From a virus, in the IMG/VR virus record IMGVR_UViG_3300029561_000002, positions 14,633 through 78,632 of that record: a stretch of DNA of 64,000 bases; one strand, 5' to 3'. Below are positions 2,357-64,000 of the stretch, piece after piece. Under the pieces are notes generated by a model. That model was not told the DNA's origin. It saw only the letters and a program-made list of their open reading frames with translations, and made no database searches. Position numbers and translations under genes: made by a program. Each line of letters starts with the position of its first letter. The stretch's first letter is position 1.

Positions 2357-2390
2357 AAGAGTTGGGCATAAAAACCCGACTCTTTTCTTA
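2357..2390. terminator. bidirectional intrinsic terminator between endolysin and LytTR gene
   Basis: AAGAGTTGGG-loop-CCCGACTCTT hairpin flanked by A/T runs on both strands. Confidence 0.7.
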
Positions 2391-3089
2391 CTCTTCGAGA
2401 TATTTTTGATATATCTGTTCTATTTCTCTTTTTCGGTTCTGTGATATTGAAACGATATCACCGGAAATCATCTTGATGTCAGATGCAATGTTTGCGATGT
2501 AATCCATGTTTACGATATAACTGCGGTGACACCGGACAAAACGCCGATCCAGAACTTTTTCTATCTCATGCAGACGCCGGTAAAAGCCGTACTGATGCCT
2601 GTCCGTGCAATGAATGATGCACATTTGACCACGGCTTTCTATATATTCGATGTTTCTGAAGAAAACCCTGTGGAAATCACCTTTGAATTTTACAGTAAGC
2701 ATCCGTTCTTTCAATCTTCCGAGCGTAGTATCAATTACGGAAAACACCCTTCCATTTTCATGCCCTTTGATAACATACTGCGCTGCCCGAACGTCAAAAG
2801 CATCACGCATATAACTGCCACTAACTGTCCAGAACATCAAACTGCCGGAGTAACCAGAGCCACGTAACTTATATGCTACATCAACACCATTTTCACCGTC
2901 TTTTAAAATGATATCCAACACGATTAAGTCAAACCATTCACCGTCTTTCACGTCATCCACAAGAGGGATGCCAGAGGTGTATTCTGAAATCTGATACGTC
3001 CGGTCACCCTTTTTCTTCAAAAATGACTCGGCCCTTGCTTTGAAATAATCAATGTCAAGCTGATTGTCGTCAAGTATTGCTATTCGCAT
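2388..3089 (-). CDS. orphan response regulator, receiver + LytTR DNA-binding domain (AgrA/ComE class)
   Basis: MRIAILDDN..LIVLDIILKDG receiver motifs and YVIKG. C-terminal IEYIESRGQMCIIH..RCHRSYIVNMDYI LytTR signature. No kinase in the window. Confidence 0.9.
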   Translation of the reverse strand: MRIAILDDNQLDIDYFKARAESFLKKKGDRTYQISEYTSGIPLVDDVKDGEWFDLIVLDIILKDGENGVDVAYKLRGSGYSGSLMFWTVSGSYMRDAFDVRAAQYVIKGHENGRVFSVIDTTLGRLKERMLTVKFKGDFHRVFFRNIEYIESRGQMCIIHCTDRHQYGFYRRLHEIEKVLDRRFVRCHRSYIVNMDYIANIASDIKMISGDIVSISQNRKREIEQIYQKYLEE

Positions 3090-3870: not shown

Positions 3871-4230
3871 CTATTTGGCGAATCTTTCAATGAACTTCCA
3901 AAACAATTCTTTGTCTTCTGATGATAATTGATAGTATTTCATAATAGCTTCTTTTGCCTTGGAATCCTCAGTGCCTATTTCAGCACATATAGAAGAGAAA
4001 TCTTTGTCCAATTTTAGATCCTTGGGTAATTCTCCTTTATTGATCCAGTCTTCGTTAATCCCGAATGCTTGGCAAATATCTTTGATAACGCTTTTACTTG
4101 GATTAGCATTGTCGTCATTCAAAAGTTTCCAAACATACTGAGGAGTTTTTCTAATTGCTTTCCCTATCTCAGTTTGGGATTTTTGACTTTCCAAAAGTAC
4201 CTCTCGGACTCTAATGAGAACGTCCGTCAT
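3871..4230 (-). CDS. XRE-family HTH repressor (CI-like)
   Basis: SQTEIGKAIRKTPQYVWKLLN HTH. GGAGGTGAGG RBS before MTDVLIRV. Divergent from the early promoter. Confidence 0.85.
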   Translation of the reverse strand: MTDVLIRVREVLLESQKSQTEIGKAIRKTPQYVWKLLNDDNANPSKSVIKDICQAFGINEDWINKGELPKDLKLDKDFSSICAEIGTEDSKAKEAIMKYYQLSSEDKELFWKFIERFAK

Positions 4231-10378: not shown

Positions 10379-10615
10379 ATAAAAGGGAACAGCTAGAAAC
10401 TTGTTTGGCGACAGCCTAGCTGTTCCGATACCGATATAAAAAGATATATCTGTTTAAGAATAGCAGAAAAAATTGACTTATTCAAGTCACAGGCGATTTC
10501 GCAACCGAAAAGTGAGGGGGATATCCCATCACTAAATACCGTGTTTGAGGTTTAAGAACCATGTGAAAGTACACGGTAACGAAAGAAACTAAAAATAATG
10601 AAAAGGAGAATTGTT

Positions 10616-11560
10616 ATGGCAAACAAAACACAATTAACAACAGCAGGAGAACAGCAGGCAGCAGTTGTAATTAACAACCAGTTTATTGACGGATTGACAA
10701 AACAGCTTGAAGAAAAATGTAAATATGGTCTTTCTTTTCCAAAGGACTACAATCTCAGCAATGCACTTATGGGAGCGTATCTGGTGCTCAAGGAAACGAA
10801 AGACAGGAATAACACACCAATTCTGGAATCTTGTAGCCAGATCAGCATCGCAAACAGTCTTATGAACATGGCGACCCTGGGGCTTTCGGTGCAGAAGAAG
10901 CAGGGATATTTCATCGCTTACAGCGGCCAGTGTCAGTTCCAGAGATCATATTTCGGAAACATGACGATTGCCAGAAGATACGGAATGAAAGACATTCACG
11001 CAGAGATTATCTACCAGGGAGATAAATTCAAATATCATATTGAAGATGGAAATAAGGTTCTGGATTCTCACGAACAGGATTTTATGAACATTGATAACGA
11101 AAAAATCCTTGGAGCATACGCAGTTGTGCTGATGGAAGATGGAACGAAACAACTGGAAGTAATGAATATCAAACAGATTAAACAATCTTGGTCACAGGGC
11201 TTCGGATACAAGGAAAATGGGAATGGCACACACCAAAAATTCACTGACCAGATGGCAAAGAAAACTGTTGTCAATCGTGCCTTAAAACAGATCATCAACA
11301 CTCATGGTGATGTTTTCGTGCAAGAAGCAGACGATGATACAGAAACAATTTCAAAAAATGACGCTTTTGCAGCTGATGTCGCATATGAAATCGAGCAGAA
11401 CGCCAACACTGAAGAATTTATCCCAGAACCAATGGCGATCGAGGAACAGTCGAAACAGCCAACGGTCGCAGAAACTGTCCAGACGGTAGAGAAAGAACCG
11501 GTCCCGGCAGCAGGCAAAGAACCAGAGATTCCAGATTTTATGAAGCAGGAGGAAATGTGA
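10616..11560 (+). CDS. recT: RecT-family single-strand annealing protein
   Basis: Length and motifs (LSVQKKQGYFIAY..QFQRSYFG, MAKKTVVNRALK) are typical of RecT. AAAAGGAG RBS before MANKTQL. Confidence 0.8.
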   Translation: MANKTQLTTAGEQQAAVVINNQFIDGLTKQLEEKCKYGLSFPKDYNLSNALMGAYLVLKETKDRNNTPILESCSQISIANSLMNMATLGLSVQKKQGYFIAYSGQCQFQRSYFGNMTIARRYGMKDIHAEIIYQGDKFKYHIEDGNKVLDSHEQDFMNIDNEKILGAYAVVLMEDGTKQLEVMNIKQIKQSWSQGFGYKENGNGTHQKFTDQMAKKTVVNRALKQIINTHGDVFVQEADDDTETISKNDAFAADVAYEIEQNANTEEFIPEPMAIEEQSKQPTVAETVQTVEKEPVPAAGKEPEIPDFMKQEEM

Positions 11561-11561
11561 T

Positions 11562-12170
11562 ATGAATAATAGTGAAATTTTAAAGAAAACAAAGGAACTG
11601 GTTGAGCTTCTGGAAAAGCAGGAAAAATCATGCAAGGTGAGATTATCGGAACTTAATTCGGGAGATATCTTCCAGACTACCGGAAAGCGAAAATACAAGG
11701 TCTTGGAACAGTACACAGAGCATACCAAGATCATTTCACTCGGATTCGTGAAAGAGAATGTGAAATTTGATGATGATACAACTGACTATAACAAATCATC
11801 CTTAAAGAAACTCTGTGATACTGAAATTCTGAAAGATTTTGAAAAAGAGTTTGGAGAAGAGAATATCGAAACTGACATAGTAGATTTGATCACCGTGGAT
11901 GGACAGAAAATCGGAGAAACGGAATGCAAAGTTAGACCACTGACGTTTGATGAAGCGCGTAAATACACAGAACTGACGCCAAATGATGAATTGGATGATT
12001 TCTATTGGACTTGCTCCACATGGAGCACAGTGGAAAGAGGATGGAAATATGCGCTAGCCGTTGTTTCGCTTTCCGGCAGCATCGGCTGCAATAGCTACTA
12101 CTGCAGCGGCGGTGTTCGCCCAGTTTGTATCTTAAAATCTAATATCTTTGTATCTAAAGCGGAGGAATGA
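11562..12170 (+). CDS. DGR variable protein 1 (carries VR1 at C-terminus)
   Basis: The C-terminus ..FYWTCS..AVVSLSGSIGCNSYYCSGGVRPVCI contains VR1. It is a paralogue of the next gene, has no signal peptide, and is coupled to the recT stop. Confidence 0.85.
   Translation: MNNSEILKKTKELVELLEKQEKSCKVRLSELNSGDIFQTTGKRKYKVLEQYTEHTKIISLGFVKENVKFDDDTTDYNKSSLKKLCDTEILKDFEKEFGEENIETDIVDLITVDGQKIGETECKVRPLTFDEARKYTELTPNDELDDFYWTCSTWSTVERGWKYALAVVSLSGSIGCNSYYCSGGVRPVCILKSNIFVSKAEE
12058..12122 (+). repeat. DGR variable repeat VR1
   Basis: 65-nt gapless match to the TR with 12 mismatches: 11 at TR adenines and 1 C>T. Confidence 0.9.
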
Positions 12171-12772
12171 AAATGAAGAAAAATCTGAAATATTTTGAAA
12201 ATGAATTAAACCGGATCTACAAAGAATTTGCTGAATATAAAAAGCAGCATATGGAAAAACCGGAAATTGGCAAAACGATGGAAATTGCCGGCATGGAATG
12301 GATGATTCTGGATAAGACAGAAAAAGGATATTTTGCCATTTTAAACAGCTTCGACGGGGAAAACAGAAAATTTGATTCAGATTCAAATAATTGGATTAAA
12401 AGTGATCTTAGAAAAGAATTAAACGATTCTTTTCTTAAGAAAATCACAGAAGAGTTGGGGGAAGATGCAGTTGTTGAATTTGATCGCGATTTACTTTCAT
12501 TGGACGGCCAGACAGAATACGGGCATTGTGAAGATAAGATTGCACTTTTGACCGTGGATGAATACCGGAAATATCGTAAATTACTTCCGAATACGAAGAA
12601 CTGGTGGTGGTTGATTACGCCATTGAGCACACCAGCAAATGGTTACAGCTCAACACTTTCCGTTGTTTCGCCTTCCGGCAGCATCGTCAACTATGACTGC
12701 TTCAACAGCAACGGTGTTCGCCCAGTTTGTATCTTTTCTTCTTCTATCTTTGAATCAAAGAACGATAAATGA
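12167..12772 (+). CDS. DGR variable protein 2 (carries VR2 at C-terminus)
   Basis: The C-terminus ..NWWWLITP..SVVSPSGSIVNYDCFNSNGVRPVCI contains VR2. ATGA overlaps at both ends. Confidence 0.85.
   Translation: MKMKKNLKYFENELNRIYKEFAEYKKQHMEKPEIGKTMEIAGMEWMILDKTEKGYFAILNSFDGENRKFDSDSNNWIKSDLRKELNDSFLKKITEELGEDAVVEFDRDLLSLDGQTEYGHCEDKIALLTVDEYRKYRKLLPNTKNWWWLITPLSTPANGYSSTLSVVSPSGSIVNYDCFNSNGVRPVCIFSSSIFESKNDK
12660..12724 (+). repeat. DGR variable repeat VR2
   Basis: 65-nt gapless match to the TR with 8 mismatches, all at TR adenines. Confidence 0.9.
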
Positions 12773-13143
12773 TGGAAAATGAAGATTTAAGAGTTATCAC
12801 AAAAGCGAAGCAATTAGCCAAACATACGTTAATTATGACCAGCAATGCGCGGAGATATCCAAAGAAGTTTAGATTTTCTCTTGTAGATAAAATGCAGAAT
12901 AAAGCTCTGGAAATATATGAAATGCTTTTTGAAGCCAACCGAACAGACATAAAAGACTATAAAAGAGAAAGATTGGAGTTGCAAACAAAAGCTATTACTC
13001 ATTGCGACGAGCTTATGTATTTTATAGAGCTTTCTTATGAATTGAATATCATAAATTCAGGAAGTATGGAAGCGTGGTCCAAAATAGTTATGGACGTAAA
13101 ACATATGGCGATTGCTTGGAGAACAAAAGACAAAAATAGGTAA
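12769..13143 (+). CDS. avd: Avd-like DGR accessory protein (four-helix bundle)
   Basis: 124-aa basic helical protein directly upstream of the TR, the canonical Avd position and size. Confidence 0.8.
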   Translation: MMENEDLRVITKAKQLAKHTLIMTSNARRYPKKFRFSLVDKMQNKALEIYEMLFEANRTDIKDYKRERLELQTKAITHCDELMYFIELSYELNIINSGSMEAWSKIVMDVKHMAIAWRTKDKNR

Positions 13144-13167
13144 GAATATAGGTTATGCGTTGCAATA

Positions 13168-13232
13168 CCGTTGTTTCGCCTTCCGGCAACATCAACAACA
13201 ATAACTACAACAACAGCAACGGTGTTCGCCCA
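13168..13232 (+). repeat. DGR template repeat (TR), transcribed as RNA
   Basis: AAC-rich (would read GNINNNNYNNSNGVRP). Lies between avd and the RT gene and is the donor of both VRs. Confidence 0.9.
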
Positions 13233-13336
13233 ACCTGGATCACAGGCAGACAGAGTAAGCACAAAGCTGAAATCAGTAAAGATACAAGTAAATGCATAGC
13301 CTTTCCAAAATGGATAAATAAAAAGGAACAAAAACA

Positions 13337-14356
13337 ATGGATAAAGAAATTGTTGCAAATTTTGAGAATTTATATCGTTCTTACAAGAAGGTTAAGAACG
13401 GTAAGAAATTTAATTCAGGTACTGCAAGGTTTTCTAATATGGCTCTCGAAGGAATTCAGATACTGAAAGAACAGCTAGAAAATCAAACATATAGCATAAG
13501 CCCATATAATAAATTTCAGATTCATGAACCGAAAGAGAGGACAATAGAATCATGTGCATTTAAGGATAAAGTAGTCCAAAGATGTTTTTCTGATTACATC
13601 CTGACACCGAAACTAGAAAATATTCTGATTAAATGGAACACCGCCGGGCAGCATGGAAAAGGACAACATATGGCGATGAATGGATTAAGAGATCAGATGT
13701 TGGATTTCTATAAAAGAAATGGAATGAATACCTGGATTGTAAAATGCGATATTCATAAATACTTTTACAGCATAGACCATGAAATTATGAAAGACATACT
13801 GGACTACTATTTTGATGATGATTTTACGACTTGGATGAATCATTTATTTATCGACAGTACAGATAACCCGGGACTGCCATTAGGAAATCAGGTAAATCAG
13901 AAATACGCTCTTTTGCTGTTACATTCATTGGACCAAATGATAACGATTGAATTTGGAAATCCATATTACGGACGATATAACGATGATTTTTATGTGTTGT
14001 GCAAAACAAAAGACATCGCTAGAGAAATTCTTAAAGCGATTCGAATGATGGTTAAAAGTCTCGGGTTGGAATTAAACCCAAAGTCACAAATTGTACCGTT
14101 CCGAATGGGACTGTGTTATCTTGGATTCCACCATTACGTGACTGATGAGGGGAAATATATCAGAAAATTACGTGGTGACAGAAAAAGAAATACTCAGAAA
14201 AAGGTTCGTAGATGGGTTCGTGCAGTAAACGAAGAAAAGATGCCGGTTGAGAAATTCAACGAAAAGTACGGAGCATGTAAGAACCATATGCTACACGGAA
14301 ACTGCATCAAATTATGCCACAGTATGGATTTGGAAATTGAAAGGAGAATGAAATGA
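13337..14356 (+). CDS. DGR reverse transcriptase
   Basis: RT motifs including GRYNDDFYVLC (YxDD) and LPLGNQVNQ, which resembles the DGR-type (I/L)GxxxSQ motif. Size 339 aa. Confidence 0.9.
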   Translation: MDKEIVANFENLYRSYKKVKNGKKFNSGTARFSNMALEGIQILKEQLENQTYSISPYNKFQIHEPKERTIESCAFKDKVVQRCFSDYILTPKLENILIKWNTAGQHGKGQHMAMNGLRDQMLDFYKRNGMNTWIVKCDIHKYFYSIDHEIMKDILDYYFDDDFTTWMNHLFIDSTDNPGLPLGNQVNQKYALLLLHSLDQMITIEFGNPYYGRYNDDFYVLCKTKDIAREILKAIRMMVKSLGLELNPKSQIVPFRMGLCYLGFHHYVTDEGKYIRKLRGDRKRNTQKKVRRWVRAVNEEKMPVEKFNEKYGACKNHMLHGNCIKLCHSMDLEIERRMK

Positions 14357-14742
14357 GATTAATTAGTCAGACGGGAGATATTGACATTCCTTACGAAAAT
14401 GCTTCATTAAGCAGAGCTGAAAATATCATAAGAGCATACATTCCAGAGACCGGTGAAAAAGGAACAATTATGGCTGCTTACTCAACAGAAGAACAGGCGA
14501 AAGAAGCAATGAGCATGGTTATATATGCATATATTTCAAACAAACCAATAGTCATTCTTCCAAAAGAAGGAAAAACAAAATTGGAATCGACTTTCTTGGG
14601 AAGATACGAATTAAGGCTTCTTAGAGAAAATCTTCCCAATGTAATGGATTTAAAAAACGAAAATGGAGACTACGTTCTTCCACTAAAAATAAGAGATAGT
14701 ATCAAAGAAATTGCCGCAGCTTTAAATGTAGCGGGATTATAA
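14353..14742 (+). CDS. hypothetical protein coupled to RT
   Basis: ATGA overlap with the RT stop; 129 aa. Confidence 0.55.
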   Translation: MRLISQTGDIDIPYENASLSRAENIIRAYIPETGEKGTIMAAYSTEEQAKEAMSMVIYAYISNKPIVILPKEGKTKLESTFLGRYELRLLRENLPNVMDLKNENGDYVLPLKIRDSIKEIAAALNVAGL

Positions 14743-14792
14743 AATAATCGGTATTAATTTTGCAGAAAGAAAAGGAGGTGATTCCAGTGTTC

Positions 14793-15542
14793 ATGCGAGT
14801 AATTTCAACAGGAAGTACGAAAGGAAACTGTTACGCTTTGCAGTCAAGGACAGGCGAGATTGTTCTTCTTGACTGCGGATGCAAGTACAAGAAAATCCTC
14901 AGAGGGATTGACTACCAGATAAACAATGTTTCCGGTGTGCTTCTTTCACATGAACATGGTTAAGGCGATCACACCGAAGCTATTCATGAAATCATAAGCG
15001 CCGGAATCACAGTTTATACCGGTCAAGAAACAATCAGTAATTTGGGTATAACAGACGGAACTATAAAAGCTGTCACTGAAAAGAAGTACTTCAAAATCGG
15101 TTCTTTCAGCGCAGTTCCGCTCAGACTACCACATACATCTGCAAATAAAGAACCGTGTCCGAACTTCGGGTATCTAGTGGAACATGAAGAAATGGGAAAA
15201 CTTCTTTACCTGACAGACTTTGAGCATTGCCGGTACAAATTCAAATCAATGGAACTTAATCACTTGGTTATTGGTTGTAATTACTGCGAGGAGCTGATAG
15301 ACAGAAACAACCCGAAGTGGAAACACCAGATCACCGGGCATTGTTCTTTGTCAACTTGTAAGCAATTCATTAAGGAAAACCTCACAGAATCGCTCAAAAC
15401 GATAACACTGGTACATTTGAGCGGTGATGTTTCAGATGCCGGGAAGATGCTTAAAGAAGTCAAAGAAGTTGTTGGGGATGATATTCTGGTTCAGATTGGA
15501 CGGTCTGGACTGGAAGTTGATTTGAAATTGTTTCCATTTTGA
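14793..15542 (+). pseudogene. MBL-fold metallo-hydrolase (recombination-module nuclease) interrupted by in-frame TAA
   Basis: The two ORFs 14760-14963 and 15042-15542 are in the same frame. The sequence reads LLSHEHG-TAA-GDHTEA, so the stop at 14961-14963 lies inside the HxHxDH motif. Confidence 0.7.
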
Positions 15543-16400: not shown

Positions 16401-16817
16401 ATGAACAAAGTAATTTTGATCGGCCAATTAGTGAAAGACCCGGACATACGGACCGGAACTAACAACATAACCATTGCCAGATACGCTCTTGCAGTAGAAA
16501 GACAGTATCGTAAAGACAACGAGCGGAAAGCAGATTTCATAAATTGTGTTGCACTTGGTAAAAATGGAGAGTTTTCCGAAAAATACCTGCATAAGGGAAT
16601 GAAAATTGCAGTCATCGGCAGCTGGCAGACTGGAAACTATACAGACACTGACGGAAAGAAAATTTACACAAATGATTGCCTAGTGGAAACACATGAGTTT
16701 GTGGAAAGCAAGGGTAGAAGCAACCAGTCCGAAAACATCGGCACAGTTCCGCCGCCAGCACCGGCAAGTGACACATTTGTCGAACCGGCTTATGATCCGG
16801 ATTTGCCATTTAGCTAA
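16401..16817 (+). CDS. ssb: single-stranded DNA-binding protein
   Basis: MNKVILIGQLVKDPDIR..ARYALAV OB fold and an acidic DLPF-type tail. Confidence 0.9.
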   Translation: MNKVILIGQLVKDPDIRTGTNNITIARYALAVERQYRKDNERKADFINCVALGKNGEFSEKYLHKGMKIAVIGSWQTGNYTDTDGKKIYTNDCLVETHEFVESKGRSNQSENIGTVPPPAPASDTFVEPAYDPDLPFS

Positions 16818-31308: not shown

Positions 31309-31686
31309 TTACTGCTCTAAATAATTTATACATGCGACTTGTGGCAAGCCCCGGAAAAACTCAGAAAAACCGCCGTCAGTAATATTATATTGCCGATCAA
31401 AAACCGGGATAATCTGCCCGTTTTTAAGCTCCATGCAAGACAGCTGTAAAAATCCGTCTTTTTTCGTCGACCGGTGCAAGGCGTACCGCATGACGGACGC
31501 GTCACCAGATCGCGTTGTTACCGGTGGCAGATCATACCAGATCAGCGGGACAGTACCGGAAGAAACCGCATTAAACACTTGCGCAGCGTCCTTTTTTGCG
31601 GTTGAATTGATCTTGTCAACAACGGAAAAATCACCGCTTTTTATAGCGGTGATGGTTTGCTTTTGCGTGGCTTTTCTAATTTTCAT
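31309..31686 (-). CDS. hypothetical protein
   Basis: AAAAGGAGAA RBS before MKIRKATQ; a terminator hairpin follows at about 31287-31312. Confidence 0.55.
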   Translation of the reverse strand: MKIRKATQKQTITAIKSGDFSVVDKINSTAKKDAAQVFNAVSSGTVPLIWYDLPPVTTRSGDASVMRYALHRSTKKDGFLQLSCMELKNGQIIPVFDRQYNITDGGFSEFFRGLPQVACINYLEQ

Positions 31687-33186: not shown

Positions 33187-33267
33187 AATTTCCCTTTCTG
33201 GTCTGCCATCATCAGCACCGGGAGACCGTCCCGCGGTGGACGCCCCTAAAATCTGAGGCGTTTCGGC

Positions 33268-33477
33268 TTATGCTTCTATTGTTCGCCCGCGGCCGTCCAT
33301 AAATACCTCCCCGGCGGGCCACTGGCAAAGCTTTGCCCGTCCCTCTTTTACAACACGCTCATTATAGCGCCCGGCGTGCTGAAGTGCTTTGTATGTGATT
33401 GTTTTAGCGGTTTTGTTCGTGATTTCGAATGTTAAACCGCTTTCATAGTATCTTTTTCCGATTTCAAATTTTTTCAT
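33268..33477 (-). CDS. hypothetical protein
   Basis: 69-aa ORF in the same leftward operon. Confidence 0.5.
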   Translation of the reverse strand: MKKFEIGKRYYESGLTFEITNKTAKTITYKALQHAGRYNERVVKEGRAKLCQWPAGEVFMDGRGRTIEA

Positions 33478-41988: not shown

Positions 41989-42060
41989 AGCGCATTGGCG
42001 AAGTGGCAACGCATCGGACTTTGACTCCGCTATTCGTGGGTTCGAATCCCACATGCGCCG
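41989..42060 (+). tRNA. tRNA-Gln (anticodon UUG), slightly non-canonical
   Basis: Manual cloverleaf: T arm GTGGG-TTCGAAT-CCCAC, anticodon loop CT-TTG-AC, 3-bp D stem, A1:C72 and one anticodon-stem mismatch. Confidence 0.65.
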
Positions 42061-42291
42061 CTCTGCATCGGATTTCGCCTTTCCTCTGATGCAGGTTGGA
42101 TTTTCTTTTTCCCTTTGCCACCTATCACAACGGTGATGATTAAAGGAACTGTCAAATGTTCCGGGTGGCTTTGCCTTAGTTGGCAAGATTAATTTCTTCT
42201 ATGGTTTACCTTTGTTGCAGCTGGCGGTCAAGAACTGCAACAGTAGTAAAAAGACAGATATCGCAGCGACCCTGTATCTTTTTGCTACTCA

Positions 42292-42365
42292 GGAAACTTA
42301 GCTCAGTTGGTTAGAGCAGCCGGCTCATAACCGGTCGGCCCTGGGTTCGAACCCCAGAGTTTCCA
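42292..42365 (+). tRNA. tRNA with CAU anticodon (elongator Met or Ile2)
   Basis: GGAAACT/AGTTTCC acceptor, GCTC-AGTTGGTTA-GAGC D arm, loop CT-CAT-AA, T arm CTGGG-TTCGAAC-CCCAG. Confidence 0.9.
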
Positions 42366-42664
42366 TTTCTCCCAAAGCTGTCCATCCGTTTTATGGATAG
42401 AAAAAACTGCCGAATGTGTGTATGTGGGTTGTTTTTCAGAAGGTACGTAACGGCGTAGCCGGAGTGAAAAGACAACTTCCCGTTCGGTTCTGTCTCTGAG
42501 TTGAATATGTCGCCAATGAGTGCACGCTGACGACAGGGAGTTTTCAAGAGGCATTTCAGAAATAATCCTCCGAAACAACTCCGTGGGACTGGCACGGATG
42601 AAAACAGTCTAGTGGAAAGCATAACACGATAAACCTATTGCTAACCCGGTACAATCCGGGTTAA

Positions 42665-42736
42665 GGCAGGATGGAGAAGTGGAATCTCACAAGGCTCATA
42701 TCCTTGAGAACGGCGGTTCAAATCCGTCTCCTGCAA
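42665..42736 (+). tRNA. second CAU-anticodon tRNA with initiator-like features
   Basis: D arm GAGA-AGTGGAA-TCTC (A11:U24), anticodon arm CAAGG-CTCATAT-CCTTG, T arm GGCGG-TTCAAAT-CCGTC, G1:A72 mismatch. Confidence 0.7.
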
Positions 42737-42919
42737 TTAATTCGTTCGTTCTATACTGTCAGTGCACAGGCGGTCTATGGTTCAAGCGGATTAAACCCAT
42801 GGGAAAAGGTTGATGTTTATCCTGGTAACTGCTGGACAGTACGAAAAACATTATCATATGTTGTGCAAATGGAAATCATCTCATTCATTTACCGAGGTGA
42901 TCAGCCGTGGTAAGCGGCA

Positions 42920-42990
42920 TGGAATGTAGCTCAGTGGTAGAGTACACTACAAAAGCGGTGAGGTCGCAGGTTCGATTCCTGCCATTCCGT
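42920..42990 (+). tRNA. tRNA-like element with aberrant 16-nt anticodon arm (pseudo-tRNA?)
   Basis: Good acceptor, D arm (GCTC-AGTGGTA-GAGT), AGGTC variable loop and T arm (GCAGG-TTCGATT-CCTGC). The anticodon arm CACTACAAAAGCGGTG has no U33 and no 5+7+5 fold. Confidence 0.4.
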
Positions 42991-43053
42991 TTCCGGTAAA
43001 TTGCCATTACCGGAAAGCATTTCCAAAATGCTCAAATTTACCTTCTGATTGGT

Positions 43054-45229: not shown

Positions 45230-45508
45230 ATGATATGGAATGAAGAAATATCCTTTGATGGATTTCAAAAGAAGATTGATGAGTGGTACAAGGATAAAGA
45301 CTTTGAACTGTGCGACCCACCTATCAGCGCTCAGTTTGCCTTAGACTTAATTTTCAAGACATTAGTAGATGATAGAGAAGATTATCCGTATCTCACAACT
45401 ATGTCAGAAAACACAGAACAAACAAATAGTATCATGCTTGATTTGATTCTTCGGAAATACAGTCGCAAATATAGAAAATACTTGAAATTAAAAAAGAAAA
45501 ATAAATAA
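45230..45508 (+). CDS. hypothetical protein with basic tail
   Basis: GAGGTGAG RBS; 92 aa. Confidence 0.55.
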   Translation: MIWNEEISFDGFQKKIDEWYKDKDFELCDPPISAQFALDLIFKTLVDDREDYPYLTTMSENTEQTNSIMLDLILRKYSRKYRKYLKLKKKNK

Positions 45509-61401: not shown

Positions 61402-61878
61402 ATGTATAAACTTTTAAAGATTGGTAACAAAGAGTATAAACTGGAATACAGCATCGAAGCATCTCTTTATGATGATTGCGTTAAAAGTGTAATGAATACA
61501 CTTCTGGCAACAAGCGGTGGTGTGGATAAAACGCCGGAAGAAATGATTTCCGGCATGGCAAATATTCCGAACACAGCATTAACCGTGTTTTATGCAGGAC
61601 TTCTTCAATATCATGGGGACAGCCCGGATGCAGACGGTTCTGTTCCGAATCTTGCAACTGCGAAGAAACTTGCAGCACAATTTATTCAGGAACATAAGGA
61701 CGATGAGCAGGGTAACTTTTACGGTATCTTTGCCATGTGTCTTGAACAGATGGAGGAAGATGGTTTTTTCAAACTGACCGGTCTGGAGACGTTCATGGAC
61801 GATCTGAACGTAGCAGCCAAACCGAAGAAAACTCCGAAGAAACCGACAGATCACCAGAAAAAAGTTACAGCGAAATAA
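61402..61878 (+). CDS. tail assembly chaperone (gpG-like)
   Basis: Position and size. The following ORF is open in the -1 frame across this gene's stop codon. Confidence 0.65.
   Translation: MYKLLKIGNKEYKLEYSIEASLYDDCVKSVMNTLLATSGGVDKTPEEMISGMANIPNTALTVFYAGLLQYHGDSPDADGSVPNLATAKKLAAQFIQEHKDDEQGNFYGIFAMCLEQMEEDGFFKLTGLETFMDDLNVAAKPKKTPKKPTDHQKKVTAK
61858..61863 (+). promoter_or_regulatory. A6 slippery run, candidate programmed -1 frameshift site (gpG/gpGT)
   Basis: CAG AAA AAA GTT. The -1 frame is open from here through 62276, and the ATG at 61917 has no RBS. Confidence 0.5.
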
Positions 61879-62656: not shown

Positions 62657-62681
62657 ATAATTAGAAAGGAAGGTGAAAAAG

Positions 62682-63845
62682 ATGATAAAAACAATTCGAG
62701 TAATGCTGATTCCAAATAATAAGCAAAAGACAAAACTCTTTCGATATGCCAATACTGCCAGATTTGCTTATAACTGGGCTTTGGCTAGGGAAATAGAAAA
62801 CTATGAAAATGGTGGTAAGTTCCTATCTGATAGTGATTTGAGAAAAGAATTTACACAATTAAAGAAAGCAGAGGAATATTCTTGGTTAAATAAAATTTCA
62901 AATAATGTAACCAAACAGGCTATTAAAGATGCTTGTAATGCATATAAGAGATTCTTCAAAGGATATTCGAAGTTTCCAAAATTCAAAAGTCGTAAATATT
63001 CTGTTCCATCTTTCTATCAAGACAATGTAAAGATTAAGTTTACAGAAACTCATGTAAAAGTTGAGGGATTTACAACCTCTAAAAGGAAAAATAAGCAGAA
63101 AATAAATTGGATTAGACTTGCAGAACACAATCGGATACCTACAGATTGTAAATACACGAGTCCTCGTATTAAGTATAATGGATTAAATTGGTGGATTACA
63201 GTAGGTGTTGAATATGAAGATTCTACTACTATTCCATCTAATGATGGAATTGGTATAGATCTAGGAATCAAAGATCTGGCTATTTGCTCTGATGGAGCTA
63301 AGTATAAGAACATCAATAAAAGTCAGAAAGTAAAGAAACTAGAAAAACAGAAACGCAGATTACAGCGTAGTATCTCTCGCTCTTACGAGAAAAATAAGAA
63401 AGGAGAAAGTTACTGCAAAACAAATAATGTAATCAAAAAGGAAAAACTTTTATTAAAACGAAATCACAGATTAACAAATATCCGTAAGAACTATTTGAAT
63501 CAGACTACATCTGAAATTGTAAATCGAAAACCAAGATTTATTTGTATTGAAGATTTGAATGTTAGTGGAATGATGAAAAATAGACATTTATCAAAAGCAG
63601 TTCAGAATCAGGGTTTTTTTGAGTTTAGAAAGCAGCTTGAACACAAGTGCAGCGATAAAGGAATTCAGCTTATTGTGGCTGATCGGTTTTATCCATCATC
63701 AAAGCTTTGCAGTTGCTGTGGAAACATTAAAAAAGACTTGAAATTATCTGACAGGATTTATAAATGTAATTGTGGAAATGTCATTGATAGAGATTTACAG
63801 GCATCTATAAATCTCAAGGCTTATGGAGAAAGATTTGCAAGCTAA
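62682..63845 (+). CDS. tnpB: TnpB (IS200/IS605-family OrfB RNA-guided nuclease), no TnpA nearby
   Basis: RuvC motifs GIDLGIKDLA, FICIEDLNVSGM and IDRDLQASINL are all intact. Zinc finger CSCCGN..CNCGN. AAGGAAGG RBS before MIKTIRV. Confidence 0.9.
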   Translation: MIKTIRVMLIPNNKQKTKLFRYANTARFAYNWALAREIENYENGGKFLSDSDLRKEFTQLKKAEEYSWLNKISNNVTKQAIKDACNAYKRFFKGYSKFPKFKSRKYSVPSFYQDNVKIKFTETHVKVEGFTTSKRKNKQKINWIRLAEHNRIPTDCKYTSPRIKYNGLNWWITVGVEYEDSTTIPSNDGIGIDLGIKDLAICSDGAKYKNINKSQKVKKLEKQKRRLQRSISRSYEKNKKGESYCKTNNVIKKEKLLLKRNHRLTNIRKNYLNQTTSEIVNRKPRFICIEDLNVSGMMKNRHLSKAVQNQGFFEFRKQLEHKCSDKGIQLIVADRFYPSSKLCSCCGNIKKDLKLSDRIYKCNCGNVIDRDLQASINLKAYGERFAS

Positions 63846-64000
63846 CACTAAAACGTTAGTGCAAATATGTACGGGTACGTTAATCCGGAATTTACGCCTA
63901 TGGAGAGTACAAGAACTTGTGAGTAGATAGATATTTATATCATCAAAAGCATACTCGTTGAAGTAGGAATGAAACATAGAAGTTTATAACTTTTTATAAG
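63700..64000 (+). ncRNA. expected omega (re)RNA region of the TnpB element
   Basis: Inferred only from established TnpB biology, where the guide RNA overlaps the tnpB 3' end and right end. Boundaries not determined. Confidence 0.3.

Follow-up and report, generated by a model that had tools for sequence, protein, structure and literature searches.

The stretch analysed here (the window) comprises 64,000 nt of IMG/VR record IMGVR_UViG_3300029561_000002, and the element that carries it is a roughly 80-kb temperate tailed gut phage, more distant relatives of which lie in Lachnospiraceae metagenome assemblies. Between recT and the MBL-nuclease and SSB genes of its recombination module sits a compact cassette (Table 1). 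As the original prediction had it, this cassette has the structure of a diversity-generating retroelement (DGR), with Avd, a template repeat (TR), a reverse transcriptase (RT) and two tandem paralogous targets with C-terminal variable repeats (VR1 and VR2), tightly coupled to recT, whose stop codon lies 1 nt before the start codon of T1. The ATGA overlaps given for T1/T2 and T2/avd were found again, and a further one joins the RT gene to orf129 at 14353. No promoter or terminator signal above chance was detected inside the cassette. The gene that follows it, orf129, occurs both in relatives that have the RT and in those that lack it. The MBL gene of the window carries a 6-nt insertion, GGTTAA, that puts a TAA inside the HxHxDH motif.

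Table 1. Features of the cassette and its neighbours (positions in the window)
Feature	Position	Strand	Matches and remarks
recT (ssDNA-annealing protein)	10598-11560	+	Pfam RecT 7e-39; phrog_148 4e-66
T1, 202 aa, DUF6273/C-type-lectin-like	11562-12170	+	phrog_9958 3.5e-22; Pfam DUF6273 22.3 bits
VR1, codes C-terminal tip of T1	12058-12122	+	12 mismatches to TR, 11 at TR adenines
Flank 3' of VR1, GTTTGTATCTTA...	12123-12150	+	Candidate IMH-like target-recognition sequence (inferred); differs from TR flank, invariant across relatives
T2, 201 aa, T1 paralog, DUF6273	12167-12772	+	Pfam DUF6273 33.4 bits; phrog_9958 3e-51
VR2, codes T2 residues 165-186	12660-12724	+	8 mismatches to TR, all at TR adenines
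Flank 3' of VR2, GTTTGTATCTTT...	12725-12752	+	Candidate IMH-like target-recognition sequence (inferred); differs from TR flank, invariant across relatives
avd (accessory variability determinant), 124 aa	12769-13143	+	phrog_3206 'Avd protein of DGR' 3.8e-23
5' arm of 12-bp closing duplex around TR and spacer	13150-13161	+	Pairs with 13291-13302
Template repeat (TR)	13168-13232	+	65 nt, 20 adenines, AAY-rich
Spacer hairpins of DGR RNA	13234-13246, 13253-13274	+	Covarying pairs CG/UA, AU/GC
3' arm of closing duplex (13291-13302), stem-loop (13304-13314), then A-rich tract	13291-13314	+	
DGR reverse transcriptase, 339 aa, YNDD and LGNQVNQ	13337-14356	+	Pfam RVT_1 2.5e-13; phrog_1423 2.4e-84
orf129	14353-14742	+	phrog_25456 (unknown function); ATGA start overlaps RT stop
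MBL-fold hydrolase, recombination module	14760-15542	+	phrog_392 5.6e-31
SSB, downstream in recombination module	16401-16817	+	Pfam SSB 1e-23

The coordinates predicted for the three repeats and their mismatch counts were all reproduced, with TR adenines accounting for 19 of the 20 differences (binomial P for at least 19 of 20 on A, 2.7e-9); the single exception is a C>T in VR1, at 13180 of the TR. A repeat search independently groups TR, VR1 and VR2 as one family, and the 12-mer GGTGTTCGCCCA occurs three times in the 64 kb, in these repeats only, against 0.11 expected. Beyond them, no further copy of the TR 3' end was found in the window. Translation of the TR in the frame of the targets gives VVSPSGNINNNNYNNSNGVRP, with 8 to about ten AAY-type codons, and 19 of the 20 TR adenines fall at codon position 1 or 2. 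The end of each VR lies 16 codons ahead of its target's stop codon, and the TR lies outside any target-like ORF. The sequences that follow the VRs (GTTTGTATC) differ from the one that follows the TR (ACCTGGATC); across 40 loci, column entropy is zero for about 30-45 nt 3' of both VRs, while the upstream flanks vary. In a search for a BPP-1-type hairpin 3' of the VRs, the predicted hairpins were weak and no better than shuffled sequence (z +1.2 and -0.8).

A conserved fold is predicted for the avd-RT intergenic RNA. Its closing duplex shows compensatory changes in 9 of 12 pairs (22 sequences), and over the whole fold 97.4% of cells are paired, with 15 pairs showing compensatory changes, compared with 21-39% paired in slid controls. 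A duplex, a stem-loop and adenosines have been described for DGR RNAs (bioRxiv 10.1101/2023.10.23.563531); the layout here matches, the 12-bp duplex being the equivalent of the 'cPRT Stop' duplex. For avd, the top NCBIfam match, NF033474 (DivGenRetAVD, 3e-9), falls under its cut-off, and the Pfam matches 23S_rRNA_IVP and bAvd are both sub-threshold. The best solved relative of the RT is 8ub7_A (3.8e-25), labelled only 'Reverse transcriptase', which we take from its motifs to be the Bordetella bRT. In the alignment, RYNDD and LGNQVNQ of the window RT stand opposite RYMDD and IGSLTSQ of 8ub7_A. The check on catalytic residues proposed with the original prediction finds YxDD intact (YNDD aligned to YMDD), and LGNQVNQ has N where the usual (I/L/V)GxxxSQ motif has S.

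Could the RT instead be that of a group II intron, a retron, a defence system or some other retroelement, with the three repeats reflecting ordinary similarity between paralogs? Its best NCBIfam model is indeed a group II intron RT/maturase, but the 100.9 bits lie far under the 300-bit cut-off, and retron and DRT models score lower still, far below their own cut-offs. Among solved structures, a group II intron RT, at 1.8e-12, stands behind the presumed bRT. The Avd gene, the adenine-restricted TR/VR differences, the covarying RNA fold and the position of the TR outside any target-like ORF also argue against such an origin, and an Rfam search of the region returned no intron or retron RNA. We therefore reject these identities, which are hardly conceivable in the face of this evidence. 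The cassette is almost certainly a complete canonical DGR.

The original prediction had named a population check on adenine-restricted variation, and across relatives the pattern holds. In 42 loci with full VR1, VR2 and TR (the window and 41 related phage contigs), the VRs mismatch at 821 of 1558 TR-adenine positions (53%) and at 71 of 3902 non-adenine positions (1.8%), so that 821 of 892 mismatches sit at TR adenines. These loci carry 16 distinct TRs, 40 distinct VR1s and 41 distinct VR2s. Where a lineage has its own non-A variant in the TR, the same base is found in VR1 in 242 of 248 cases and in VR2 in 232 of 248. Both VRs thus track their own TR, which indicates that homing into both targets was recent; by this sequence record the DGR appears to have been recently active, with mutagenic homing at the population level. 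In two of the 42 loci the TR itself is eroded: that of L025 equals its VR2 bar one base, and that of L024 retains only 9 A. In L040, there has been a crossover between TR and VR1. Avd and RT have been lost in about a quarter of relatives, in which both targets stay intact. The proteins therefore work without continuing diversification, an observation that favours neither a virion nor a non-structural role. Public metagenomes hold several thousand cluster representatives (90% identity) matching T1 or T2, and the phage family carrying the cassette is common in the gut.

T1 and T2 are both 23 kDa and about 35-40% identical. With a gathering cut-off of 23.5 bits for Pfam DUF6273 (PF19789), T2 scores above it and T1 just under; T1 is probably a member too, given its paralogy to T2 and its match to phrog_9958. 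An intact T1 ortholog occurs in all 77 relatives, out of 80, in which the region is covered. We found no signal peptide, transmembrane or other hydrophobic segment in either protein, in line with what had been predicted (maximum Kyte-Doolittle 19-residue means of 0.96 for T1 and 0.65 for T2), and T1 has an N-terminal helix. The AF2 model of T2 (pLDDT 77.7, pTM 0.71) consists of an N-terminal helix and one globular domain, with VR2 in a loop or hairpin between strands 164-167 and 186-191. Foldseek searches with this model matched viral DUF6273 proteins (2e-6) and the T. ramosa IgA peptidase 9qa6, which carries a DUF6273 domain (1.4e-4), with weak C-type-lectin and DUF1566 matches, and no PDB sequence match to a target was found. 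Together with Pfam and PHROG, these results show that the guess of a DUF6273-type domain was right, and DUF6273 is already known as a family of gut-phage DGR targets. Two more specific identities were rejected. An Mtd-type receptor-binding protein does not fit, as the model has no beta-prism or beta-sandwich domain and the gene is part of the replication module, with terL about 33 kb further downstream; nor does a tentaclin or Hoc-like target, as no Ig-like domain is found by Pfam or in the model. The match to phrog_10993, 'Hoc-like head decoration', spans the DUF6273 part only. Fused two-domain versions exist (355-411 aa), suggesting that T1 and T2 work together. In the tail-to-lysis stretches sampled at 57 loci of related phages, three of which tile contig 103659 from position 31526 to its end, there is no TR-like sequence or T1/T2-like ORF, nor is there a DUF6273 gene in the sampled late region of this phage family. 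As judged from these sequences, T1 and T2 are thus, with the same near certainty as the DGR identity, the only DGR targets found in the family.

The placement of the cassette is constant. In all 80 IMG/VR relatives the T1/T2 pair lies between SbcC or annealing-protein genes and the MBL/SSB genes, with another protein of 367 aa or extra small ORFs upstream of T1 in many of them. In relatives from MAGs that show flanking matches (RT 52-61% identical), the cassette is near SbcC, RecT, MBL, SSB or helicase genes. One of these distant relatives, L086, has contiguous genes for a RecT-like protein, MBL and SSB, which supports the earlier view that the three are normally adjacent, and its cassette follows a DnaB-like helicase gene. 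This arrangement ties the cassette to the replication/recombination module and not to recT itself. The kind of DGR is thus already known, and what is unusual is its placement and its choice of targets. New here are T1 and T2 as sole targets, the constant placement in the module, the loss of Avd and RT with the targets kept, and the small targets among early genes elsewhere.

The cassette has the same components as that of Bordetella phage BPP-1 (mtd, avd, TR, brt) in the same target-avd-TR-RT order, with adenine-specific mutagenesis, a VR at the 3' end of a target with the C-type-lectin fold, an RT that aligns to the presumed bRT (8ub7_A, 3.8e-25) with its YxDD motif, and an RNA with an upstream:spacer duplex, a stem-loop and an A tract. 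However, its TR is 65 nt long, compared with about 134 nt in BPP-1; its two tandem targets of about 200 aa lack the beta-prism and beta-sandwich domains of Mtd; there is no GC-rich hairpin after the VRs; the RT motif reads LGNQVNQ instead of IGSLTSQ; and it lies in a recombination operon, whereas that of BPP-1 is at the end of the tail genes.

DGR targets that are small, consist of DUF6273 only and are encoded away from the tail genes have been described in nd4/nd12, Lelie/CP11 and Toutatisvirus (PMC10743442, PMC11792537, bioRxiv 2024.10.15.618418), and we find such targets among early genes in four lineages besides that of the window: FP_Brigit, nd4-like phages, Toutatis (gp24) and Lelie (orf58). 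The nd12 RT is the closest to the window RT in the phage collection searched (38% identity), and tgt2 of nd4/nd12 is a small DUF6273-only protein with a C-terminal VR, 34% identical to T2 (PMC10743442). In nd4, its gene precedes RNase_T, Gam, ERF and SSB genes, but the RT and a large Ig-domain target (tentaclin) are about 10 kb away; the window has no large target, and its whole cassette sits with the two small ones. The early-gene proteins of FP_Toutatis/Lelie and FP_Brigit (PMC5883640, PMC11792537, bioRxiv 2024.10.15.618418) are about 31% identical to T2. FP_Brigit gp06, shown in this analysis to be a remote DGR target, lies after cI/cro-like genes and before exonuclease and RecT genes, so that an ssDNA-annealing protein gene adjoins the small target in both FP_Brigit and nd4-like phages; the Brigit TR, at about 73 nt, is also short. 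Some Toutatisvirus genomes without a DGR keep their targets, as do about a quarter of the window's relatives. In contrast to the window, these FP phages have one small target and no tandem pair, tens of kb from an RT (accompanied by an annotated avd in Brigit) near tail, lysis or Hoc-like genes. Similarly, ORF84 of Quimbyvirus, distal to the structural module, was proposed to be a non-structural DGR target serving phage-host conflict (PMC8008677). It differs in that the hosts are Bacteroides, the RT is frameshifted, a second target adjoins the tail fibre genes, and the neighbours of ORF84 are methyltransferase, nuclease and tRNA-ligase genes with no recombination module. The idea of a small or non-structural target is thus less unprecedented than the original prediction implied.

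We propose that avd, the RT gene and the stretch that separates them are transcribed and that the intergenic RNA folds, with the 12-bp duplex closing the TR and spacer. Avd and RT then copy the TR into cDNA, misincorporating opposite adenines, and this cDNA replaces the 65-nt VR at the 3' end of both T1 and T2, randomising 8 to about ten codons of the AAY type within a surface loop of DUF6273. The sequence shows these steps except for the enzymology, which follows from the established mechanism of Bordetella BPP-1. T1 and T2 themselves may be soluble binders of hypervariable sequence that the infecting genome expresses along with its early genes. Within the infected cell they would work jointly, for instance on host defence or takeover targets that vary, and their early expression would link each variant directly to its encoding genome. 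Overall, an active DGR with early intracellular binding proteins as targets is the best explanation, and one we consider somewhat more probable than all others combined. We counted against it the lack of a detectable hairpin of the BPP-1 type after the VRs and the score of T1 just below the Pfam cut-off.

Taken by itself, the claim that T1 and T2 are early, intracellular, non-virion proteins and not receptor-binding ones is one that we infer from sequence and whose chances we see as evenly poised. The absence of a signal peptide and of transmembrane, Ig-like and fibre domains points to it, as do the small targets among early genes of the four other lineages and the fused two-domain versions. 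Gene position, in turn, is no proof of timing, virion proteins are also expected to lack a signal peptide, and the N-terminal helix could dock T1 and T2 onto virions. Indeed, the two proteins might be virion-associated adhesins or receptor-binding modules, like Mtd or nd4 tgt2, encoded outside the structural module and docked by this helix, in which case the DGR would serve the switching of host range or mucus adherence, as in other gut phages. In favour of this role, Mtd and the tentaclins likewise display the VR on a surface loop of a C-type-lectin-like fold (PMC10743442), the DUF6273 part matches the Hoc-like family, and receptor binding is the role that was assumed when small DUF6273 targets were described (PMC10743442; bioRxiv 2024.10.15.618418). 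The helix and lectin-domain layout also weakly recalls trimeric collectins (CL-K1, SP-D, MBP; E 0.5-3.5), but these matches are not significant. To our knowledge, every experimentally characterised phage DGR target is virion-exposed. Against the adhesin role, T1 and T2 have no Ig-like, beta-prism, fibre or other anchoring domain, in at least five lineages that differ in their structural modules such genes are found in the early replication and recombination region, and the sampled late region of the T1/T2 phage family is without a DUF6273 gene. We regard this role as the less probable of the two, albeit a serious contender.

A further reading, compatible with either role of the targets, is that the placement reflects mechanism, with cDNA integration into the VRs using the RecT, SSB and nuclease machinery at replication forks. 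We know of no account of how DGR cDNA is integrated in nature. Refactored BPP-1 DGRs in E. coli depend on CspRecT for any mutagenesis, and their TR is subject to self-erosion (bioRxiv 2025.03.24.644984; 10.64898/2026.07.21.739853), and the window would be the natural counterpart of such synthetic, RecT-dependent DGRs. Like DGRec (bioRxiv 2025.03.24.644984), it has a DGR RT, Avd and TR RNA alongside a RecT-family annealing protein, and eroded TRs occur in both; DGRec, however, is engineered and IMH-independent, whereas the link to RecT in the window is one of genomic proximity alone. In favour of this reading, recT abuts the cassette, RecT or ERF genes lie beside the small targets of Brigit-like and nd4-like phages, and the relatives include the two loci with eroded TRs and the TR-VR1 crossover, although ordinary gene conversion could also cause such erosion. 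GC skew is positive on the + strand throughout, so that, at forks travelling in the direction of transcription, the lagging-strand template would be the strand to which an antisense cDNA anneals, an orientation that lends this reading weak support. On the other side, the neighbour is not always RecT (the 367-aa protein, extra small ORFs or, in L086, the DnaB-like helicase), the RT is far from recombination genes in Brigit, nd4 and Toutatis, and early operons commonly hold recombination genes anyway. Moreover, the difference between VR and TR flanks is of the kind seen in IMH/IMH* systems and the sequence after the VRs does not vary, which argues for canonical directional homing. We therefore consider the use of this machinery rather unlikely. 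The same low probability applies to the boldest combination, in which a DGR devoted wholly to a cytoplasmic pair of early lectin-fold proteins, a programmable intracellular binder, would also integrate its cDNA with recombinase assistance, via the annealing protein and SSB. Still, a cassette beside an annealing-protein gene in the window, with small targets beside such genes in two other lineages, is a testable lead on cDNA integration.

As far as we know, DGRs are the only natural machines for targeted protein hypermutation in prokaryotes, and phage DGRs are understood almost entirely as diversifiers of tail fibres or capsid decorations. Should T1 and T2 prove to be virion adhesins, this would be another gut-phage DGR with an odd gene position. 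If they are instead the early intracellular proteins that we favour, it would be the first phage DGR acting on non-virion proteins only. With two small proteins of the early recombination module as the only targets found, the T1/T2 family offers a clean system for asking whether phages hypermutate intracellular proteins too.

The element around the two tandem target genes (T1 and T2) is a genuine diversity-generating retroelement (DGR), showing the defining features for which it was tested. The repeat geometry of the original prediction was reproduced, as the 65-nt template repeat (TR) aligns without gaps to the variable repeats of T2 (VR2, 8 mismatches) and T1 (VR1, 12 mismatches). The adenine bias also held, with 19 of the 20 mismatches falling on TR adenines as changes from A to G or T (P = 2.7e-9, given 20 adenines among the 65 TR positions), while the one non-adenine mismatch is a C>T at 13180. 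An independent repeat search of the window grouped TR, VR1 and VR2 as one family, and their common 3' end, GGTGTTCGCCCA, has no further occurrence in the 64 kb. Read in the frame of the targets, the TR gives VVSPSGNINNNNYNNSNGVRP, with 19 of its 20 adenines at codon positions 1 or 2, which is the classic AAY design. The predicted ATGA overlaps between T1 and T2 and between T2 and avd are present in the ORF map, together with an additional overlap, at 14353, between the reverse transcriptase gene (RT) and the gene directly after it (orf129).

Coordinates of the DGR features in the window and of the FP_Brigit repeats
Feature	Position	Strand	Source
recT	10598-11560	+	ORF map
T1	11562-12170	+	ORF map
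VR1	12058-12122		
T2	12167-12772	+	ORF map
VR2	12660-12724		
avd	12769-13143	+	ORF map
TR	13168-13232		
RT	13337-14356	+	ORF map
FP_Brigit NC_047909.1 repeats	about 4021-4093 and 45411-45483		from L084 3948-4559 and L102 4412-4484 (fetched loci)

The accessory variability determinant (Avd) matches phrog_3206, 'Avd protein of DGR' (3.8e-23), and its top NCBIfam model is DivGenRetAVD, with a score under the model's cut-off; a search of Avd against PDB sequences gave no match. For the RT, the nearest solved relative is chain 8ub7_A (3.8e-25), labelled only 'Reverse transcriptase', which we take from its motifs to be the Bordetella bRT; RYNDD aligns with its RYMDD and LGNQVNQ with its IGSLTSQ. Assignment of the RT to group II introns, retrons or defence RTs (DRT) was rejected, with all of these models far under their cut-offs. 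The nearest RTs in the phage collection belong to nd12 (38%), FP_Brigit, nd4 and FP_Toutatis, all of them gut Firmicutes phages with DUF6273-type targets.

The avd-to-RT intergenic region was also aligned across 22 phages with RTs 52-98% identical to that of the window. A 12-bp duplex pairs 13150-13161, just upstream of the TR, with 13291-13302 in the spacer, with compensatory changes at 9 of its 12 pairs, and covarying hairpins were also found at 13234-13246, 13253-13274 and 13304-13314. Pairing is kept in 97.4% of the cells of this alignment, with double changes at 15 pairs, versus 21-39% in slid-partner controls. Because this covarying fold is the layout of upstream:spacer 'cPRT Stop' duplex, stem-loop and adenosines described for the Bordetella phage BPP-1 and predicted for a further 207 DGRs (bioRxiv 10.1101/2023.10.23.563531), the element is canonical in its RNA too. 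If the element follows the mechanism established for BPP-1, cDNA synthesis that is mutagenic at adenines would be primed within the spacer, and the cDNA would then replace the VR. The DNA hairpins predicted 3' of VR1 and VR2 were no better than those of shuffled sequence.

Using T2 as query, we retrieved 80 IMG/VR loci, mostly on contigs of about 75-85 kb. The repeat statistics cover the 42 loci (the window and 41 of these relatives) from which VR1, VR2 and TR could all be extracted, and which contain 16 distinct TR sequences, 40 of VR1 and 41 of VR2. The VRs are changed at 821 of 1558 TR-adenine positions (437 to G, 331 to T and 53 to C) and at 71 of 3902 non-adenine positions, the majority of the 71 coming from four anomalous loci. 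Had variation not been restricted to adenines, the original prediction of a DGR would have failed; between genomes, it is so restricted. Furthermore, lineage-specific non-adenine variants of the TR are matched by VR1 in 242 of 248 cases and by VR2 in 232 of 248. Since the VRs carry the TR variants of their own lineage, both targets have been re-homed since the TR lineages split. Judged from these genomes, this is a DGR with intact RNA, Avd and RT whose two VRs have recently been rewritten.

The machinery has been lost repeatedly. Avd and RT are full-length in 54 of the 80 relatives, the RT is truncated in 4, and 22 have no RT match, two of which are uninformative for its loss, as one locus ends at a contig edge (L006) and the other has no downstream matches (L048). 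At least five deletion patterns account for the loss in the other 20, every one of which keeps T1 and T2 intact, similar to the pattern reported for Toutatisvirus, some genomes of which have the targets but not the DGR. In some relatives the TR itself has changed: that of L025 (7450-7514) has 10 adenines and is identical to its own VR2 but for one base, that of L024 (9002-9066) has 9 adenines, and in L040 (557-2243) a TR x VR1 crossover has duplicated the T2-avd segment. This decay and recombination resembles the TR self-mutagenesis of synthetic RecT-driven DGR systems.

In the window, the endolysin gene (750-2165) is followed by lysogeny and regulation genes and then by a plus-strand block comprising an SSB-like gene, an SbcC-like ATPase gene, recT, T1, T2, avd, TR, RT, orf129, and the MBL hydrolase and SSB genes; a methyltransferase, a serine integrase, tRNA genes, terL (45575), portal and capsid come after it. 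T1-T2 lie between SbcC/annealing-protein genes and MBL/SSB genes in 80 of 80 relatives. When the cassette was searched by megablast against 50,697 phage records, nothing beyond one 221-nt fragment came back, and therefore no close relative is deposited among these records. T2 alone as query against genome contigs gave no match; an alignment-based scan of genome contigs yielded 17 loci from MAG and uncultured-bacterium assemblies, the majority of which carry names of Lachnospiraceae genera. Names among the MAG relatives are Dorea, Mediterraneibacter, Roseburia, Faecalimonas and Agathobacter. In those MAG relatives with flanking matches, the T1-T2-Avd-RT unit is still near replication/recombination genes, but its position differs; the unit of L086 comes after a gene for a DnaB-like helicase, with RecT-like, MBL and SSB genes contiguous upstream. 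The gene upstream of T1 varies in close relatives as well, being a full RecT, a 367-aa protein or extra small ORFs. As both the upstream neighbour and the position vary, the conserved link is with the module and not with recT as such. The 367-aa type replaces RecT in many relatives (for example, L003 6116-7219 and L058 5823-6929), has no Pfam match and has only its C-terminal ~66 residues in common with the window RecT; it may be an alternative annealing protein with a common C-terminal tail, perhaps SSB-binding. For consensus promoters and terminators, the counts over 6.5-18.5 kb did not exceed the shuffled expectation, so that the scan points neither to a transcription unit of the cassette's own nor to a particular time of expression. 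The lack of such signals, the placement and the overlapping or abutting genes weakly suggest that the cassette is co-transcribed with the early recombination genes.

The window contains no third VR. Because the stretch of about 15 kb that separates its last genes from the endolysin gene is missing, late stretches were obtained from relatives by way of the endolysin and of the ORF at 61402-61878; on contig 103659, three loci tile position 31526 to the end, which is all of the stretch missing from the window and not the whole contig. The 57 late-region loci of relatives contain no TR-like sequence and no T1/T2-like ORF, and their sole 12-mer matches were discarded as chance similarity within a conserved gene (23/65 identity to the TR). 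With none in the window or the late-region loci, the DGR of this phage family serves T1 and T2 only. The late region of one relative (L311 4980-6023, minus strand) also has another RT-like ORF, which is unrelated to the DGR RT (25% identity) and possibly represents a group II intron or a different retroelement.

Other features of the window were recorded along the way. The MBL-fold hydrolase gene (14760-15542) has a 6-nt insertion, GGTTAA, that puts a TAA in its metal-binding HxHxDH motif (SHEHG*GDH); the relatives L001 and L002 read SHEHGDH, without GGTTAA, and the window gene is either a pseudogene or an assembly error. A LytTR-type response regulator gene (2388-3089, minus strand; LytTR 1.7e-17, receiver domain under cut-off) adjoins the lysis/lysogeny region. 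A type II hammerhead ribozyme (33197-33268, minus strand; Rfam 58.8 bits versus a gathering score of 37) lies in surroundings with few long ORFs (about 30.4-34.4 kb), and four tRNA genes (41989-42991; Gln-TTG, two Met-CAT and a fourth that ARAGORN leaves unassigned and whose anticodon loop is odd) lie just upstream of the packaging genes. Stop-codon reassignment in the ORF-poor 30-36 kb and 40-44 kb was rejected, since no single recoding restores long ORFs and the latter stretch holds tRNA genes. In the late region, the stretch 62673-63969 holds a 390-aa transposase ORF (phrog_506, 5.7e-106) with a RAGATH-18 RNA directly after it (63897-63969, 75 bits), presumably a TnpB-like gene of the IS200/IS605 type and the RNA that goes with it.

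As for the targets, T2 is a DUF6273 protein above the Pfam threshold (33.4 bits versus 23.5), T1 is slightly short of it (22.3 bits), and both match phrog_9958. An initial AF2 run on T2, with a shallow alignment of close homologs, gave a pLDDT of 48 and was discarded; the retained run, with homologs added via a Toutatis/nd4/Brigit profile, reached a pLDDT of 77.7 and a pTM of 0.71. In this model, an N-terminal helix (residues 3-27) precedes a single alpha/beta globular domain, in which the VR (residues 165-186) is predicted to form a loop between the last strands. By Foldseek, the model matches the Thomasclavelia ramosa IgA peptidase (9qa6, E 1.4e-4), whose N-terminal domain is annotated DUF6273 (PMC12402451), viral DUF6273 proteins (E down to 2e-6) and, weakly, C-type lectins and DUF1566. 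The predicted fold agrees with the published view of DUF6273 as a C-type-lectin-like DGR target domain (PMC10743442; bioRxiv 2024.10.15.618418). Pfam and hydropathy revealed no hydrophobic segment, Ig-like domain or fibre domain in T1 or T2, and a T1/T2 profile found nothing significant among PDB sequences. Among 1.84 billion cluster representatives, a profile search found 4491 related clusters, the best 150 of which are mostly proteins of about 170-260 aa, with several two-domain fusions of 355-411 aa. In P0362, P0365, P0367, P0374 and P0426 (cluster representatives), two small DUF6273 domains are fused in one chain, in most cases with a VR-like motif (xVRPxCI or similar) closing each domain, making them the counterpart of a fused T1-T2. 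These fusions hint that T1 and T2 may act together.

Small DUF6273-only DGR targets have been published for nd4/nd12 (tgt2), Lelie/CP11 and Toutatisvirus (PMC10743442, PMC11792537, bioRxiv 2024.10.15.618418). In the annotated genomes, FP_Toutatis gp24 and Lelie orf58 are surrounded by methyltransferase, regulator and replication-initiation genes, RNase_T exonuclease, Gam, ERF and SSB genes come just downstream of nd4 tgt2, and FP_Brigit gp06 directly follows cI/cro-like genes and precedes two exonuclease genes and RecT. Thus, the small DUF6273 targets of these phages are all among early genes. The 3' end of gp06 matches the Brigit TR, located ~41 kb away, over 73 nt with 7 differences, all at TR adenines. 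This repeat comparison shows gp06, a small DUF6273 protein of the early operon, to be a second and remote target of that DGR, whose original description named the Hoc-like protein alone as target. In FP_Toutatis/Lelie, nd4 and FP_Brigit, the RT and a large Ig-domain target are near tail and lysis genes. In contrast, the window's phage family has no large target, and the whole cassette is joined to the small ones. A non-structural phage DGR target has already been proposed, namely Quimbyvirus ORF84 (PMC8008677).

The most likely single reading, which we hold to have an even chance of being right, is that T1 and T2 are non-virion, early, probably intracellular binding proteins. We favor it because the early-gene position recurs in five lineages with different virion modules, because neither protein has an anchoring domain and because early expression from the infecting genome would couple genotype to phenotype directly. 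It is also favored by the cytoplasmic DGR-diversified lectin-fold sensors described in bacteria (PMC10907252). The main rival, to which we assign about a third of the probability, is that T1 and T2 form an adhesin that docks on the virion and has its genes outside the structural module, the role that earlier authors assumed; the recurrent early position and the missing anchor weigh on the other side.

Either function of the targets would be compatible with an annealing protein that helps the DGR cDNA to integrate, and to our knowledge the natural cDNA-integration step of DGRs is not established in the field. Refactored BPP-1 DGRs in E. coli need supplied RecT and then erode their own TR (bioRxiv 2025.03.24.644984, 10.64898/2026.07.21.739853). 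Such assistance would fit a cassette that abuts recT in the window, the small targets of two other lineages beside RecT or ERF genes, the occasional TR erosion in natural relatives, and a positive coding-strand GC skew, by which the antisense cDNA would serve as a lagging-strand oligonucleotide. However, the neighbour of the cassette is not conserved, the RTs of the other lineages are far away, and the VR flanks resemble a conventional IMH (the sequence 3' of the VR taken to direct homing), and we regard recombinase-assisted homing as unlikely.

Published work already covers the element, its target domain and small targets at remote sites, and has put forward non-structural DGR targets in phages. 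What appears to be new is a prevalent family of phages in which the DGR serves nothing but two small DUF6273 proteins, encoded in tandem in a replication/recombination operon. It also seems unreported that, as a general rule, small DUF6273 targets lie among early genes, beside annealing-protein genes in three of the lineages examined. We consider this DGR a case of moderate interest, in which the functions proposed for T1 and T2 would be directly testable.
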